A DNA stretch of 43,689 nt from a virus (taxonomy: Duplodnaviria > Heunggongvirae > Uroviricota > Caudoviricetes). This document shows positions 3,745 to 24,895 of this stretch, piece after piece. The notes under the pieces are model-generated. The model saw nothing but the letters and a program-made list of their open reading frames with translations, was not told the DNA's origin and made no database searches. Each line of letters opens with the position of its first letter. Positions within the stretch are counted from its first letter, which is position 1. Location of the stretch: IMG/VR virus record IMGVR_UViG_3300045988_038444, positions 1 to 43,689 of that record; one strand, 5' to 3'. Position numbers and translations under genes: made by a program.

Positions 3745-4516
3745 TGTTAAGTTATTTAATCAAGATTGTTTGTTCATGATGAACTTCATTACTGAAAAAT
3801 CTATTGATTTAATTCTTACAGATCCTCCGTATGGTACAACTGCTTGCAAATGGGATTCGATAATAGATTTAGATTTAATGTGGTCAAATTTAAATCGAAT
3901 CATTACGGATAAAGGGGCAATCGTTCTTACGGCAACACAACCATTTGCAAGTATTTTAGTAAATTCAAACATCAAAATGTTTAAATACGATTGGGTGTGG
4001 AATAAATCAAAACGAACTGATTTTGTAAGAGCAAAACTAAAACCAATGGGTGGTCACGAAAGCGTTTTGGTTTTCAGTAAAGGTTCTGTTGCGAATGGTG
4101 CATCTTCAATGATGAACTATTACCCACAAGGTTTGAAACGTATTAATAAAGTAGCTAAAAACGGCGGCGGTGGTTCTGGTTTTTTGGGTCGTAATGGTGA
4201 AAATTTAGGACCAAATAACAAGCTACACAAACCTACGTATATTCAAGAATTTACAGGATACCCATGCACTCAATTGAATATTCAGAGTGAGAATAAAACA
4301 GTTCATCCCACGCAAAAACCTGTAGAGTTAATGGAATATCTTATTTTAACTTACACAAAAGAAGGTGATACGGTTTTAGATTTCACAATGGGTAGTGGAA
4401 CAACAGGTGTTGCTGCCGTGAAAACTAATCGTAATTTTATCGGTATAGAGTTAGATAAAGAATATTTCGAAATTGCTAATAAACGTATTAATTTGGCATT
4501 GATGGGTATTTACTAA
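3737..4516 (+). CDS. DNA N6-adenine/N4-cytosine methyltransferase (beta class)
   Basis: DPPYG (motif IV) is near the N-terminus and FTMGSGTTGVAA (motif I) near the C-terminus. ATG 3737 follows GGAGAG and overlaps the upstream stop. Visibly AT-rich. Confidence 0.85.
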   Translation: MVDVKLFNQDCLFMMNFITEKSIDLILTDPPYGTTACKWDSIIDLDLMWSNLNRIITDKGAIVLTATQPFASILVNSNIKMFKYDWVWNKSKRTDFVRAKLKPMGGHESVLVFSKGSVANGASSMMNYYPQGLKRINKVAKNGGGGSGFLGRNGENLGPNNKLHKPTYIQEFTGYPCTQLNIQSENKTVHPTQKPVELMEYLILTYTKEGDTVLDFTMGSGTTGVAAVKTNRNFIGIELDKEYFEIANKRINLALMGIY

Positions 4517-20759: not shown

Positions 20760-21184
20760 TGATTAAACCTCACCATTATTCCGGCTTTTAATATAGCACG
20801 TTCGACAAACCCGGAAGGTGTCTGTGTACTGCTACCACCATTGAGAACCCCAATGTAAGGAACGTTGTTAGTAATATGCAGTTCCTGACCATTAACTTTA
20901 ATACTGCTGATAGTGACTGTATCCTGTTCGATACGTGCTTTACTGGCTTCAACATTACCTGTTGGTGTATCAGGACTATTAGCGGGTTGCCCCTGATCGA
21001 ACCACCAGTTGTTGCTTGCCCAGCCACTCAATATTGGTGTACCATCAGGAGGCTCACTTATGAGTATGTTACGTAGTGTTAAAACATATCTAATGACTTG
21101 ACGATCCGTAAAATCTTGTAAGTCGGCTTTTATGTCTTTAAACACTCCAGTAATACGATTTATATCATTGATTTTGCTAGTCAT
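20756..21184 (-). CDS. neck protein (HK97 gp10-like head-tail joining)
   Basis: The start is taken at MTSKINDIN (ATG 21184). The track start at 21250 would run into the divergent endonuclease gene. Function called on synteny. Confidence 0.45.
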   Translation of the reverse strand: MTSKINDINRITGVFKDIKADLQDFTDRQVIRYVLTLRNILISEPPDGTPILSGWASNNWWFDQGQPANSPDTPTGNVEASKARIEQDTVTISSIKVNGQELHITNNVPYIGVLNGGSSTQTPSGFVERAILKAGIMVRFNQ

Positions 21185-21206
21185 TGACAAACCTAAAGGT
21201 AGAAAA

Positions 21207-22103
21207 ATGGGCGGTAAAAGACTAACCAAAGAACAACTAGAGCATAACATAAAAGATATTTGTCAATCAAAAAATTACAAATTTATAAAATGGAAAGACG
21301 GGTTTAAAAACAAAGAATCACGAATTATTTTATCTTGTGTTACACACGGGGAATGGGACACTAAATGTTATCATTTTTTGAATGGTTCTGGTTGTCCGAT
21401 CTGTGGTGGAACACGAACCACAAAAGGGTTAAGAATTGCACAGATTAAAGACAGTTTAACAAATTCTAAATCAAAGTTTATTAAATTTAAAACTAATTTT
21501 CAAAATGGAAATTCTGTTTGTTTGCTGAGCTGTATTGATCATGGTGGATGGGAGACAACAGTCAATAGACTAATCTTTACATCTGTTGATTGCCCGTTGT
21601 GTATAACGAATAGACAGAAAACTAAACAAGAACGAGAAATTGAAATAACAAATAGATGTAAAGAAACAGGGTTGTTTTTTAATAAGATATTCGACGAACA
21701 TCCGACATGGAAATCTAAAATATCATTAAAGTGTTCAACGCATGGTGATTTTGTTACAACAATTAATTCTTTTCTTAGTAAACAAAAAGGTTGTCCAAAC
21801 TGTAGTAAAACAGGGTTTAAAGCTGGTAAGTATGCAACACTTTATGTCTTGCGGTCCACATGCGGTCGTTACGTTAAAATAGGTATCAGTAATTGTGTAG
21901 AGCAAAGAATTAATACACTTCGTAGAAAAACACCATTTGATTTTCAAGTAATAGAAAAATTGAATGGACACGGGGCAACCATTCGTTCACTTGAAAAAGA
22001 TTTTCATTCTCATTTTGAATCTGCAGGATTAACCGGGTTCGATGGTTGTACAGAGTGGTTAAAATGGAATCCAAATATAACCACTCTGATACGGATGTTA
22101 TAG
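21207..22103 (+). CDS. T5orf172 (GIY-YIG-related) homing-endonuclease-like protein, second family member
   Basis: Three Cys/His modules (CVTHGEW...GCPICGG; CIDHGGW...DCPLCI; CSTHGDF...GCPNCS). The C-terminus reads ATLYVL...VKIGISNCVEQRINTL...CTEWLKW. Strongly AT-rich. Sits antisense between two neck genes. Confidence 0.75.
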   Translation: MGGKRLTKEQLEHNIKDICQSKNYKFIKWKDGFKNKESRIILSCVTHGEWDTKCYHFLNGSGCPICGGTRTTKGLRIAQIKDSLTNSKSKFIKFKTNFQNGNSVCLLSCIDHGGWETTVNRLIFTSVDCPLCITNRQKTKQEREIEITNRCKETGLFFNKIFDEHPTWKSKISLKCSTHGDFVTTINSFLSKQKGCPNCSKTGFKAGKYATLYVLRSTCGRYVKIGISNCVEQRINTLRRKTPFDFQVIEKLNGHGATIRSLEKDFHSHFESAGLTGFDGCTEWLKWNPNITTLIRML

Positions 22104-22481
22104 TTATACCGCTCCAACAGGATGAATAAATGCCATATCATCCCCTAACAATCGTGGGTTTTGACGATCAAGAAGGCGATATTCTTTACCACGTTCATCA
22201 ACCACAACATCACCCCGATCAGGAACAAATCGTGGTTCAAAACTCTGACTATCCATAATTACCATCGTTGTGGTTATTCTGGTCATAGTAGTCGGATCCC
22301 ACTTTTCTAATGGGTAAATATAACCACGACACGTATGCGATTCAGTAACGGTTGTACCCGGTAATGTAGGATTAGACGGGTTGGGAACTGTTATCACACG
22401 TTTTACCGTCAAATCCTCACCTACTTCAGCAAGTGCACGAGTAACACCTTTCAGGACACTTTGACGTTTGTCTGCCATCAC
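22104..22481 (-). CDS. head closure / head-tail adaptor protein
   Basis: 125 aa. Follows the connector-like gene. Called on synteny. Confidence 0.45.
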   Translation of the reverse strand: MMADKRQSVLKGVTRALAEVGEDLTVKRVITVPNPSNPTLPGTTVTESHTCRGYIYPLEKWDPTTMTRITTTMVIMDSQSFEPRFVPDRGDVVVDERGKEYRLLDRQNPRLLGDDMAFIHPVGAV

Positions 22482-22888
22482 CGTTCACCCTCGTTAAGTG
22501 CACGACCACCGCTTTCAAGTGTTACAGGTGGGTTGTCGAACTGACCACGTTGAATAGCAGGTTGCATACCAGCGCCAGTTAATGTAGCTCCACCAACACC
22601 CATAAAACTACCTAACAAACCGCCACCTGAATCAGCGCCAGTATTAATACGTAAAATAAAATCTTTTTTAAGTTTATTCCAGGCGTCTGCTGACTGACTA
22701 CTGCTGAGTGAGATCGGACCTACTTTAATGTCAGTATCGTTGCTGGCAATAGACGCCATATAATCACAGAGAGCGACGCAAATACTGAGAGGATTTGTAT
22801 AACCGTTGTCAATGTACCACTGAATTTGTTCATCAGTAACATCAGGGACACTGATCAAATAACGAATACCTTCAACTGTAATAGCCAT
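22478..22888 (-). CDS. head-tail connector (gp6-like) protein
   Basis: The start is taken at MAITVEGIRY (ATG 22888, RBS AGGTGA). The track start at 23062 would translate through a terminator hairpin. Confidence 0.5.
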   Translation of the reverse strand: MAITVEGIRYLISVPDVTDEQIQWYIDNGYTNPLSICVALCDYMASIASNDTDIKVGPISLSSSQSADAWNKLKKDFILRINTGADSGGGLLGSFMGVGGATLTGAGMQPAIQRGQFDNPPVTLESGGRALNEGER

Positions 22889-22927
22889 GTGATCACCTGT
22901 GAGAAATGTTTTCGTTATATTAGCACG

Positions 22928-22953
22928 AAAAAAAGCCGTCTTAAACAGACGGC
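22928..22953 (-). terminator. strong intrinsic terminator ending the non-coding segment (minus strand)
   Basis: On the minus strand: GCCGTCT-GTTTA-AGACGGC followed by T7. Confidence 0.75.
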
Positions 22954-23459
22954 AAATGGCTCTGGGTGATAATGAGGGTTTTACATAACTGGTCATCCAC
23001 ACCTGACGTCCCAACATACCCCTATGCGTGACACGTGAATAACCAGTTATGTAAAACGACACGCAGTTCAGGATGTTTCACAACATGCTTTACCCACGAT
23101 TTGCGGCTTTCCCGCCAGCAAGATAAGGATCACCTCCTTATCAGCGAGTGTTTGGGTTGTGGCGGTTGGAATCGAACCAACTCCCATCGGTGCGATTCCA
23201 ACCGCAGTACGCGCAGCGGTCCGCTACATGACTAGTATTTTCACGGTCGCCTATCTGCTAGCTCGCCATTGAGCTTCACCACAACGGAAAGAGCACTGGA
23301 ACTTGGGCTGAGTATTACCGCATGTCTTTCGACTTCGAACCAAGGCTGACATTACCCAATGCTCTTACCTGTTATGTGCCGGTTACGTTTATCCGGCGTC
23401 TTTCGACCGATTAAGTGATAGTGTCTGCTATGCAGTTCTGTCACTGACTTAACAATAGG
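22954..23459 (-). ncRNA. candidate large structured non-coding RNA (function unknown)
   Basis: About 500 nt with no credible ORF on either strand. Contains many perfect hairpins, GAAA loops and a tRNA-like module, and is bounded by a gene stop and a terminator. See findings. Confidence 0.35.
23158..23283 (-). other. tRNA-like module (non-canonical, 126 nt)
   Basis: On the minus strand: acceptor TGTGGTG/CGCCACA (7 bp, one G-U), D-arm GCTC-AATGGC-GAGC, T-arm GTTGG-TTCGATT-CCAAC. There are 78 nt and no 5-bp/7-nt anticodon arm between the D-arm and the T-arm. Confidence 0.3.
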
Positions 23460-23813
23460 TCAAGAATAGTTATATGTCAAGCCTTGTGATTCACACCATT
23501 TAGCAGCGGCACTTTTACTACTAAACGATTCTGAATTCATCGGCATACCCATAACATAAACATTATAGGTTTTTGGCGCATCACGTCGGATTTCAGCCGC
23601 AGTGGTTGATGCCGATTCTTCGGTTGCTACAGTCACTGGTTCTTCAACGGTCGCAGTAGCTGGTTCAATGTGGCGCATACGCACAAGGGCGTTTAAAACA
23701 GCCGGGGTAGCTTTTGATGTTGATACTTTATCGCCAGCGGACATCTGTTTACCGTTCCACAGCATCGGACGGGTGAAAACATATTTCAGTGACGGATCAT
23801 ATGAATTACGCAT
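23460..23813 (-). CDS. hypothetical protein (117 aa)
   Basis: The start is taken at MRNSYDP (ATG 23813, RBS GAGG). The track start at 23867 runs through the capsid-gene terminator. Confidence 0.55.
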   Translation of the reverse strand: MRNSYDPSLKYVFTRPMLWNGKQMSAGDKVSTSKATPAVLNALVRMRHIEPATATVEEPVTVATEESASTTAAEIRRDAPKTYNVYVMGMPMNSESFSSKSAAAKWCESQGLTYNYS

Positions 23814-23828
23814 GATTTTAACCTCATG

Positions 23829-23855
23829 AAAAAAGGGGCAGCATAAGCCACCCCT
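23829..23855 (-). terminator. intrinsic terminator after the major capsid gene (minus strand)
   Basis: On the minus strand: AGGGGTGGC-TTAT-GCTGCCCCT followed by a T-run. Confidence 0.65.
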
Positions 23856-23875
23856 TAATGATATCACAGTTGTTA

Positions 23876-24895
23876 TTAAACCGCGTCGTAGAACAGAACG
23901 CCCAGGTCAGGTGCAACCATCTGAACATCAATGGCAAATTCCGCTTCAACGAAATTACCACGACGGCCTTCGACACCCGGATAGGTACGGATAGACGGAC
24001 CGTTGTTAACGCCCAGACCGATGAACTCGTTCCACACGAAGCCCGCAGCCGCAACAGGTTTCATATTGCCAACAGTCGGTTCAACATAGTTGAGCATCAG
24101 CACACCAGTTTTAGCAAACCGGAAGTCTGACAGCGGATTGCCGTTACTGTCTTCAACGCCATCAGCAGCCATGTTGACCACAGACTGCATGATTTCCAGT
24201 TCGTCAACTTCCAGCAGTGCAGCCAGTGCCTGTTTAGTCACGATCCCAGGGTTCTGAGTGGTAGAACCACCGTTAATACGGTCAATAACAGCCGGGCTAC
24301 GGGTCAGTGCGTCATACACGTCCAGCGTCATCAGTGCTTTGTTCCAGCGACGACCACCGGATGCCAGAGAGAACGCAACACGACGTGACAGGATATCACC
24401 AATCGGATCGGCATTCGCATTAGACCATTTCAGGAATCCACCCGTGGACGGAGACGAGCCTTTACCCTGGAAATCAAGACCCCATTTACCAGCGGTCAGG
24501 AATTTTTCAGCAAAATCCACTTCTTTGTTGATCAGCAACGCATCTGTGGTTACTGCTGACGCTTCCATATCCAGTTGCTGACCGTTTTGAACGTTTGCAC
24601 GTTTTTTGTCAGAAATAAAGATACGGATCGCATCGTCATCAACGGTGTAACCCTGGTTTTTGGTTTTGTAACCAATAGTATTAGCAACACCATCTTCGGC
24701 ACGTTTGGAGTTAACCGGACGACCGAAATAACCTTTCGGGTAAGTCAGGAATTTACCAGCAGCCTGGTTAACAGGAACTACCGGGAAATAACGAGTACCG
24801 ACAAACAGTGACGTATCCTGCCAGTAACTTACAGAAAAGTTAGACAGGAATGTATCTGGTGCGCCAACGTCGCGAAAATTCTGTTTGTAACTCAT
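23876..24895 (-). CDS. major capsid protein
   Basis: 339 aa. Follows the scaffold and decoration genes and is followed by a terminator. The composition is typical of HK97-fold capsid proteins. Confidence 0.8.
   Translation of the reverse strand: MSYKQNFRDVGAPDTFLSNFSVSYWQDTSLFVGTRYFPVVPVNQAAGKFLTYPKGYFGRPVNSKRAEDGVANTIGYKTKNQGYTVDDDAIRIFISDKKRANVQNGQQLDMEASAVTTDALLINKEVDFAEKFLTAGKWGLDFQGKGSSPSTGGFLKWSNANADPIGDILSRRVAFSLASGGRRWNKALMTLDVYDALTRSPAVIDRINGGSTTQNPGIVTKQALAALLEVDELEIMQSVVNMAADGVEDSNGNPLSDFRFAKTGVLMLNYVEPTVGNMKPVAAAGFVWNEFIGLGVNNGPSIRTYPGVEGRRGNFVEAEFAIDVQMVAPDLGVLFYDAV

Follow-up and report, generated by a model that had tools for sequence, protein, structure and literature searches.

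The subject of this work is a segment of about 500 nucleotides (nt; positions 22954-23459) in the head operon of a tailed phage, the window being the whole 43,689-nt stretch of the virus record IMGVR_UViG_3300045988_038444. Based on the sequence comparisons described here, this segment is probably a non-coding RNA locus, which is made up of mobile structured modules, lies at the 3' end of the capsid unit, and has as its core a non-decoding tRNA-shaped RNA. An earlier reading of the window, made from its letters and their open reading frames (ORFs) alone (referred to below as the sequence-only reading), had regarded the segment as a hairpin-dense candidate for a large dedicated transcript in the minus sense.

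The tRNA-shaped RNA and its palindromic loop

The core element is located on the minus strand and its different parts are as follows.

23158..23283, minus strand: non-decoding tRNA-shaped RNA (covariation, RNAalifold, covariance model)
23283-23277 / 23164-23158, minus strand: acceptor stem UGUGGUG/CGCCACA, then AA (covariation)
23274-23261, minus strand: D arm GCUC-AAUGGC-GAGC (covariation)
23258-23204, minus strand: long arm of 55 nt (covariation)
23231..23236, minus strand: ACUAGU, a palindromic hexamer in the middle of the long arm's 20-nt apical loop (alignment of variants)
23202-23186, minus strand: small hairpin (hairpin 2) GUUGG-AAUCGCA-CCGAU, with 5 base pairs (bp) and a 7-nt loop (covariation)
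23181-23165, minus strand: T arm GUUGG-UUCGAUU-CCAAC (covariation)

In the long arm, the outer stem (GCAG/CUGC) is separated by an internal loop (AUA / GCGCGUA) from an inner helix, which is capped by the 20-nt loop. A short variable loop, GGGA, is present between hairpin 2 and the T arm. The 3' strand of the acceptor is directly followed by ACC (23157-23155), the encoded end being ACCC. A pattern scan of IMG/VR for this module identified 82 loci with 39 distinct sequences, and the alignment used for covariation (A2) comprises 35 distinct sequences. In this alignment, 97.6% of the cells are paired and both-sided changes are seen in 16 of the 34 pairs. These values were reached by none of the 500 shuffles, and when the partners were slid by 1-3 columns the paired fraction was 28-51%. 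Every helix of the tRNA-shaped fold covaries and the identical structure is predicted independently by RNAalifold. Further, a covariance model (R1) built from the alignment has this module as its sole match in the window, with a score of 153 bits (E = 4e-33). As ARAGORN does not call the module and Rfam gives a weak signal at most, it is due to this covariation that the tRNA-like module, which the sequence-only reading had placed at 23158-23283, can be accepted as genuine, and the compensatory changes which that reading had named as a test of its proposal are thus present. The covarying helices also indicate the strand, because their G-U pairs would become A-C mismatches if the other strand was read. 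The segment as a whole is likewise strongly folded: the predicted energy of the minus strand at 22925-23450 is -197.5 kcal/mol in comparison to -158.2 +/- 6.3 for dinucleotide shuffles (z = -6.27; 0/100 shuffles as good), and the plus strand of the same segment gives z = -4.75.

In a tRNA, the D arm is followed by an anticodon arm of 5 bp and a 7-nt loop, and the position of this arm is here taken by the 55-nt arm. The sole 7-nt loop in the RNA (AAUCGCA, or CAGCGCA in most relatives) has A33 and C37, and it lacks U33 and a purine at position 37. Due to the absence of an anticodon arm after the D arm and the unsuitability of this loop, the RNA cannot decode. A working decoding tRNA, for which ARAGORN is also negative, was rejected on these grounds. 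A tertiary pair between the loop of hairpin 2 (CAGCGCA) and the invariant internal loop GCGCGUA was sought, and the variants of these two loops do not covary.

The searches for known families in the window gave no tRNA and no transfer-messenger RNA (tmRNA) with ARAGORN, and no Rfam match at the gathering score; a tmRNA is therefore excluded by both. At E <= 10, Rfam matches in the window were at chance level (mir-2076, tRNA-Sec, suhB and STnc560), that to tRNA-Sec having 17.8 bits and E = 1.2 where the gathering score is 47. In 10 related loci, Rfam recognised genuine tRNA-Met genes and nothing else. For GOLLD, ROOL, HEARO, group I/II introns and known ribozymes, there were no matches at E <= 10 in 22800-23600 and none at the gathering score in the window or in the 10 related loci. 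The Rfam scan that was suggested in the sequence-only reading hence places the segment in no known RNA family.

The hexamer in the apical loop is self-complementary in 35/35 aligned sequences as well as in 3 further model matches that were inspected. Its aligned versions are ACUAGU (in the window and most copies), UCUAGA, UCGCGA, ACCGGU, GCUAGC and UCCGGA. A looser scan of all loci, inclusive of those from metagenomes (where the scan for the module gave 28 loci), yielded 34 distinct sequences, and a palindromic hexamer is present in every one of them, with no new version. The 7-8 nt which flank the hexamer on each side are not mutually complementary. For a fixed hexamer the chance of a palindrome is 1/64, and each change of version needs a symmetric double substitution. 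The retention of self-complementarity across six versions predicts that the tRNA-shaped RNA forms a kissing homodimer through this loop.

The copy in the window has one peculiarity. In comparison to its nearest relative (locus L039), its hairpin 2 shows 3 substitutions (GCGAUCGGCAUCG -> GCGGUUGGAAUCG), all of which raise the complementarity to the T-loop/T-stem/acceptor segment, while hairpin 2 itself is preserved via G-U pairs. The perfect 13-bp inverted repeat at 23162-23174 / 23193-23205, which had been noticed in the sequence-only reading and is readily seen in the sequence, is the product of these 3 substitutions and it is specific to the window copy.

The leader hairpin and the distribution of cassettes

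The tRNA-shaped RNA is preceded by a hairpin, referred to as leader hairpin P1 (not to be confused with phage P1), which overlaps the acceptor stem.

23280..23376, minus strand: leader hairpin P1 (sequence conservation, recoding with pairing kept)
23376-23360, minus strand: 5' strand of leader hairpin P1, CAUAACAGGUAAGAGCA
23359-23296, minus strand: variable tip V1, with the second GUCGAAAGAC hairpin and a T-loop-like motif, GGUUCGAAG
23295-23280, minus strand: 3' strand of leader hairpin P1, UGCUCUUUCCGUUGUG, whose final 4 bases overlap the acceptor 5' strand

The unit formed by these elements has the general formula CACAAC-(A)GGUAAGAGCA-[V1]-UGCUCUUNNCG-UUGUGGUGAA-[V2]-CACCACAAC. A cassette was defined here by the presence of CACAAC(A)GGUAAGAGCA / UGCUCUUNNCGUUGUG abutting UGUGGUG / CACCACA, then AC, and the unit in the window shows this arrangement in the form of CAUAACAGGUAAGAGCA / UGCUCUUUCCGUUGUG, then UGUGGUG ... 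CGCCACA-ACC. Comparison of the units from different genomes shows that such a cassette, consisting of a leader hairpin with a hypervariable tip and an abutting acceptor-type stem (P2), is widespread in the phages and prophages of Enterobacterales. The leader hairpin is recoded with its pairing intact in PSH-1, ST1UNAM, PJ16/L040 and phage P1; examples of the recoded stems are CCCACGAAUGAGAGUA / UAUUCUCAUUCGUGGG in PJ16/L040, and CAACGUUGAGAACACUGG / CCAGUGUUCUCAACAUUG as well as AAGGGUA / UACCCUU in phage P1. In an alignment of the two strands which was assembled by hand, 8/15 pairs of this hairpin show compensatory changes. The sequence GUUGUG has two possible partners, viz. the upstream CACAAC, giving a longer leader hairpin, or the downstream CACAAC, giving the acceptor, and in the phage P1 copy an altered GUUGCG fits both partners.

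The common stem carries 79 distinct V1 tips among 197 units. The V2 position is also variable in its content. The tRNA-like body of the window type is present in 71 units, and in others a bare tetraloop is found, or other tRNA-like bodies in which canonical D and T arms are combined with large inserts, or a genuine tRNA. One example of the last kind is tRNA-Arg(UCU) in locus L099, which begins 3 nt before the end of the 3' strand of the leader hairpin. A further form of V2 has two mutually complementary loops, one D-like (GCUGAU) and one T-like (AUCAGC), and in one case the two covary (GUCGA/UCGAC). About 40 units are of this D-like/T-like type, for example those at 2099-2185 of locus L006 and 2228-2356 of locus L157, with the loops (A)GGCUGAU and AGAUCAGCA; the loop-loop helix of 5-7 bp that they could form would mimic the elbow of a tRNA. 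The units are also found in tandem arrangement.

The distribution of the different parts of the segment was examined by BLAST against phage and E. coli genomes. The window sequence 23409-23156 shows ~90% identity to intergenic DNA of the unrelated Skatevirus Seszw_1 and to that of PSH-1, and 23298-23150 shows ~90% identity to HK75, a P22-like phage, Akira and prophages in 175/5426 complete E. coli genomes. The part with V1 and its stem (23380-23275) is 97-99% identical in the Klebsiella phages SopranoGao and SJM3 and in E. coli phage St11Ph5, and 23409-23356 has short matches of 84-100% in Jersey-like phages and 158-kb Klebsiella phages. Thus the segment splits into at least six modules, which are found apart from each other in unrelated phages. 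In the closer relatives of the window phage, the same slot is occupied by different sets: a short module of another kind is present in 9NA, SP069 carries no more than an acceptor stem into which ~40 nt are inserted, Sasha combines the ~40-nt insert of SP069 with the leader hairpin of the window under another tip, and PDP46, PJ16 and the IMG/VR relative L040 have extra units. The sharing of modules with unrelated phages, and the swapping of sets among close relatives, show that the locus is a mosaic of independently mobile modules.

The unit of leader hairpin and acceptor stem recurs in lambda, phage P1, HK75, and in P22-like, Klebsiella and Salmonella phages. A short query across the junction of leader hairpin P1 and P2 has matches in 392 phage records, most of which belong to phages of Salmonella, Klebsiella and Escherichia. 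When a genome collection was scanned with an 18-nt pattern (16 specified bases), ~11 of the 120 loci found were true units, the rest being mostly chance occurrences in unrelated phyla, and the true units are essentially confined to Enterobacterales. Lambda (record DE3, EU078592; locus L328, ~1445-1620) has one unit, which starts 8 nt past tR', between orf-64 and S, with GUUGUGCUG/CAGCACAAC as its P2, and the site is unannotated. HK75, a prophage of E. coli 55989 and lambda have the unit between tR' and the holin gene, in the orientation of their late genes, and the array in the window has the orientation of the head genes. Phage P1 (AF234172; locus L327, 2190-2900) contains three units after tRNA-Asn/tRNA-Thr in the Pban-ban leader. 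As these lie exactly beneath the opposite-strand ORFs plp ('putative lipoprotein') and upl, the annotation of those ORFs may be spurious. The statement in the sequence-only reading that nothing comparable was described for coliphages hence holds for annotation; however, units of the same type are present, without annotation, in lambda, phage P1 and HK75.

Two other settings of these elements are of importance. In the Skatevirus/Akira array, the units are antisense to the flanking tail genes, are preceded by a sigma-70 promoter of their own (TTGACA-17-TAGATT), and end with tRNA-Met and a terminator; the tRNA-like module and tRNA-Met have the same orientation in Akira and PSH-1. The tRNA that follows the array differs by a single base in Seszw_1 (L003 2323-2399), where its anticodon is AAT in place of the CAT of PSH-1, ECO95 and Akira. 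In a second class of copies (loci L017, L020, L033, L051, L084 and L093), the tRNA-like module sits on a basal helix of ~20 bp directly upstream of the Shine-Dalgarno (SD) sequence and ATG of N-like antiterminators (phrog_271), i.e. at the tip of the N-leader hairpin, in some lambdoid prophages. It was also observed that a module of ~200 nt (GATAGTTTTCGT...GACTTTGCGG...TAATAATGGGCAC), which could be an RNA or a small antisense ORF, occurs between units (L005 ~3780-3985; also L011, L012, L205, L040 and L327). Its hosts are the E. coli 55989 prophage, Akira, ST1UNAM, PJ16, L040 and phage P1, and the copy in phage P1 adjoins an annotated 'dicF-like region'.

Other modules, expression signals and flanking genes of the locus

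The other elements of the segment, in the order in which they would be transcribed, are listed below.

23452..23480, minus strand: sigma-70-like promoter TTGACA (23480-23475), 17-nt spacer, TATTGT (23457-23452); 10/12 match
23415..23444, minus strand: M0, 5' hairpin GUGACAGAACUGCAUAGCAGACACUAUCAC (predicted fold; an inner CUGC-NNN-GCAG hairpin is also in 9NA)
23378..23409, minus strand: M1, GUCGAAAGAC hairpin with GCCGG-AUAAACGUAA-CCGGC (separate occurrence in Jersey-like and 158-kb Klebsiella phages)
23122..23142, minus strand: hairpin GAUAAGGA-GGUGA-UCCUUAUC, in which UAAGGAGGUGAUCC is complementary over 14 nt to the 16S rRNA 3' end (sequence)
23068..23121, minus strand: hairpins GCGG-GAAAG-CCGC (23115-23103) and AUGUU-GUGA-AACAU (23086-23073), or else a 17-codon ORF starting with TTG, MLAGKPQIVGKACCETS
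22978..23057, minus strand: M6, long hairpin with a 16-bp perfect stem and an inner hairpin GCAUA-GGGG-UAUGU (23027-23014) (sequence comparison)
22928..22953, minus strand: intrinsic terminator GCCGUCU-GUUUA-AGACGGC + U7, 7 pairs, 5 of them G-C (GC-rich hairpin and U run)

Most of these hairpins had been listed in the sequence-only reading, and they are found in the sequence as described there: the two copies of GTCGAAAGAC in the minus sense (23324-23333 and 23398-23407), GCCGG-N10-CCGGC (23378-23397), GCGG-GAAAG-CCGC (23103-23115), the 16-bp inverted repeat (22978-22993 / 23042-23057), the perfect 14-nt anti-16S complement (TAAGGAGGTGATCC, minus 23140-23127, in an 8-bp hairpin at 23142-23122), and the strong intrinsic terminator (GCCGTCTGTTTAAGACGGC + T7 at 22953-22928). 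M1 closes a unit in PDP46, and in the window it resembles the remainder of a truncated preceding unit, with the T-like arm and the 3' strand of the latter. The anti-16S hairpin is conserved in 9NA, SP069 and Sasha, and the unrelated locus L083 has a comparable SD hairpin after its tRNA-like module. The TTG ORF starts 5 nt past the 14-nt complement and 11 nt past its GGAGG core, and its length is the same in 9NA and SP069. It may encode a leader peptide, or the RNA hairpins may have produced this reading frame by coincidence. As the changes in 9NA are compensatory in the GUGA hairpin (AUGUU/AACAU -> ACGUU/AACGU) and most of them alter the peptide, we lean towards RNA for the region 23068-23121. 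M6 is missing from 9NA and SP069; its inner AUA-GGGG-UAU motif is seen, within a covarying outer stem, right after the unit in the Skatevirus/Akira arrays. The terminator is conserved in 9NA and SP069 with an altered loop. The promoter-like site overlaps the stop codon of the upstream gene and is conserved in Sasha, PJ16, PDP46 and L040.

The window is derived from a 9NA/Sasha-like siphophage, and over 22400-24000 it exhibits 98-99% identity (BLAST) to Salmonella phage Sasha and the E. coli phages PDP46 and Bas82. The RNA segment is flanked upstream by a small head-operon gene (23460..23867, minus strand; phrog_19242) and downstream by a gene starting at 22888 (phrog_21889). When counted from the ATG at 22888, positions 1-136 of the 136 in the phrog_21889 profile are covered. 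Due to this, the longer connector ORF that reaches 23062 is not real, which bears out the view of it taken in the sequence-only reading. That reading had also found no credible ORF in the segment, and this has held: the ORFs within it are of 30-66 amino acids (aa), among them one of 66 aa on the plus strand and one of 39 aa on the minus strand, and neither these nor the upstream extension of the connector ORF have any family match in PHROGs or Pfam. An intact protein gene at this position in related phages had been put forward as the observation that would speak for a decayed gene, and none of the relatives examined has a protein gene here; a decayed protein gene was rejected for these reasons.

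Some other features of the surrounding region are worth recording. A 323-aa ORF at 21132-22103 (plus strand) lies opposite to the surrounding head-tail operon, ~850 nt away from the RNA locus, and is missing from Sasha at the same position. It contains T5orf172/MUG113 (GIY-YIG-like), CapR and zinc-finger domains, matches phrog_681 'endonuclease', and looks like a free-standing homing endonuclease. A terminator-like hairpin (23833-23856, minus strand) is present immediately 3' of the major capsid gene, and an extended -10-like sequence, TGCTAATAT (9NA counterpart TGATAGAAT), is found at 22917-22925 (minus strand), just past the terminator at 22953-22928. In view of these two signals, the head operon may be split into separate transcription units.

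Interpretation of the locus and its relationship to known systems

If the locus is expressed as its signals suggest, then a minus-sense transcript of ~520 nt would either start at the 23480-23452 site or arrive as read-through from the capsid genes, and it would end at the terminator at 22953-22928. RNase P of the host would cut this transcript between 23284 and 23283, at the 5' end of the acceptor. The sequence determinants for this enzyme are present: the 7-bp acceptor is stacked on a 5-bp T stem (12 bp), the T loop (UUCGAUU) and a D loop that contains GG provide the elbow, and the acceptor is preceded by U at -1 and followed by A73-C74-C75. It is plausible that the tRNA-shaped RNA is an RNase P substrate. 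It is likewise plausible that the 16-18-bp stem of the leader hairpin is a site for RNase III, which may cut it. Excision would release a stable tRNA-shaped RNA of ~126 nt, which would pair with a second copy through its palindromic loop. As a guess, this stable, late-expressed RNA could bind or titrate a host or phage factor that recognises the tRNA shape, acting as a natural 'tRNA scaffold' that displays a non-tRNA domain. A wider proposal, which we hold tentatively and consider somewhat doubtful, is that the RNA in the window belongs to a large and as yet unrecognised family of modular 'tRNA-scaffold' RNAs in enterobacterial phages, lambda and phage P1 among them. In these RNAs, hypervariable domains would be displayed on a conserved leader hairpin and an acceptor/D/T framework, excision would be due to host RNase P and RNase III, and the type found in the window would form kissing dimers. 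Their hypervariability would come from an arms race with host defence or RNA-metabolism factors that recognise tRNAs, towards which they would act, for example, as decoys or sponges. With regard to the dedicated minus-sense transcript envisaged in the sequence-only reading, its non-coding nature and minus sense have stood, the promoter-like site and strong terminator agree with it, and the Skatevirus/Akira arrays are separate units of this kind; a single RNA of ~0.5 kb, however, is not supported.

Several observations weigh against the interpretation of this locus as a set of functional modules around a tRNA-shaped RNA. The module is missed by both ARAGORN and the Rfam tRNA model, and its encoded 3' end is ACCC, not ACCA. 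In the window copy, the T arm and acceptor face competition from the 13-bp helix, which is favoured in the minimum free energy fold of the single sequence; due to this, the copy may be impaired or adopt another fold. The first four pairs of the acceptor also have a competitor in the outer part of the leader hairpin (CAUAAC/GUUGUG). The palindrome could alternatively represent a symmetric DNA site. The number of promoter-like sites in the region is not above that in shuffles, and hence the promoter call is suggestive only. Lastly, 9NA and SP069 are without most of the modules, which indicates that the modules are dispensable for this type of phage.

The same data can be viewed in other ways. 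If the elements are purely cis-acting punctuation of a polycistronic late mRNA, then the hairpins and the tRNA-like fold would provide RNase III/P sites and protect the capsid message at its 3' end. Translation or ribosome loading would be tuned by the super Shine-Dalgarno hairpin, and the excised RNAs would be functionless. This explanation, which we regard as unlikely but deserving of serious attention, accounts for the location of the locus between the capsid genes and a terminator, for the lambdoid units in the late leader just past tR', and for the copies of the tRNA-like module which cap a ~20-bp helix upstream of the SD/ATG of N-like antiterminator genes. In lambda this N-leader position is that of the RNase III site controlling N. 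Daniels and colleagues reportedly described RNase III sites in the lambda late leader in 1988 (cited in PMC7547250). However, a processing site needs neither a conserved 20-nt loop with a palindrome, nor a second hairpin loop, nor an invariant GCGCGUA internal loop, and the Skatevirus/Akira array, being antisense to the flanking structural genes and having its own promoter and terminator, cannot punctuate the mRNA of those genes. The locus may also be thought of as selfish or neutral mosaic debris that is spread by recombination at conserved stems, perhaps aided by homing endonucleases. Module content varies among near-identical phages, 9NA having almost none, the exchange boundaries are at or near conserved stems, and endonuclease genes are found near the arrays (window 21132-22103, Akira HNH, Seszw AP2). 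This explanation is nonetheless improbable, as compensatory changes, G-U pairs and the T-loop/D-loop signatures are kept across lambdoid, P22-like, phage P1, Skatevirus and 9NA-like backgrounds; these RNA-level constraints point to selection on the folded RNA, possibly for the element's own spread.

The comparison with large ornate RNAs such as GOLLD and ROOL in the sequence-only reading has fared less well, and a single RNA of this kind that adopts a global fold is now very improbable. The segment is of ~520 nt and dense in hairpins, it has several GNRA-type loops and a strongly negative z, it includes tRNA-like sequence beside them, and the predicted self-association of its loop resembles what has reportedly been observed for such RNAs. 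Against this, there is no Rfam match even at E <= 10, and no conserved long-range pairing was seen between the modules, which are single or reordered in other genomes; the close relatives 9NA, SP069, Sasha, PDP46 and PJ16 differ in which modules they have, lack or have exchanged. The 66-aa plus-strand and 39-aa minus-strand ORFs and the cloverleaf-like arms would favour a protein gene in decay or a tRNA that still decodes; but with ORFs that match no family, no intact gene in relatives, no anticodon arm and a negative result from ARAGORN, this explanation is hardly credible.

Phage tRNA genes are among the known systems that are close to the element, and they have in common with it the 7-bp acceptor, the GG of the D arm, the UUCGAUU of the T arm and A73-C74-C75. 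The differences are that the element has a long arm of 55 nt and an additional hairpin where a tRNA has its anticodon arm, and that it escapes detection by ARAGORN and the Rfam tRNA model. The occurrence of tRNAs at the late-leader position is described for P22-like phages (PMC8022706). The slots in which the element and tRNAs are found are also shared, viz. past tR' in lambdoids, beside tRNA-Met in Akira and beside tRNA-Asn/Thr in phage P1, and the leader hairpin is common to genuine tRNAs and the window-type element. Late leaders of phage L, Sf6 and Stx phages, as well as the ban operon of phage P1, contain tRNAs too. YrlA is a circularly permuted tRNA mimic (T arm, acceptor-like stem-loop, D arm) whose ends form a Ro-binding stem (Chen et al. 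2014, PMC4201824). Like YrlA and Y RNAs, the element is non-decoding, mimics D and T arms and is found in bacteria and phages. Identity with YrlA was rejected, as the element has the normal tRNA order, its neighbours are phage head and connector genes with no Ro60 (TROVE) gene, and there is no Rfam match.

The stable RNAs species 1 and 2 of phage T4 (rnaC, rnaD) are small RNAs that are encoded and processed within a tRNA cluster. The element resembles them in being a small phage RNA among tRNA genes, its stability being predicted. No sequence relationship to rnaC/rnaD was found, and these are not known to be modular cassettes or carriers of a palindromic loop. Self-association through loops is well known for the HIV-1 dimerisation initiation site and phi29 pRNA, where paired substitutions are the classic signature. 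The self-complementary hexamer, or complementary loops, of these RNAs are comparable with the hexamer described here, which is however borne in a 20-nt loop on a tRNA-shaped body and for which dimerisation is predicted. GOLLD and ROOL are similarly encoded by phages or prophages, adjacent to tRNAs and rich in hairpins, but the present units are much smaller, their modules are separable, and they have no evident global fold or Rfam match. Engineered tRNA scaffolds are said to have been introduced by Ponchon and Dardel for recombinant RNA in E. coli; in them too a foreign domain replaces the anticodon arm, with acceptor, D and T arms retained for processing and stability, whereas the phage element is natural and hypervariable. 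The RNase III hairpins in the N leader and late leader of lambda are long perfect stems; copies of the tRNA-like module cap such a stem upstream of N genes, and in lambda the leader hairpin is a stem of 16-18 bp directly past tR'.

Although tRNA mimics and phage tRNAs are already known, a cassette which reuses the tRNA frame and a common leader for dozens of RNA domains in unrelated phages seems to be new, and our literature search found no paper that describes the cassette unit or its sequences. The palindromic loop provides a direct and cheap experimental handle, and as lambda carries a unit, the genetics of this system should be easy. If these RNAs are expressed and stable, then phages would have a further class of non-coding RNA, late or early, whose partners can be tested. 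In addition, they would explain the long 'empty' intergenic regions of many phage genomes and allow the annotations of these regions to be corrected.

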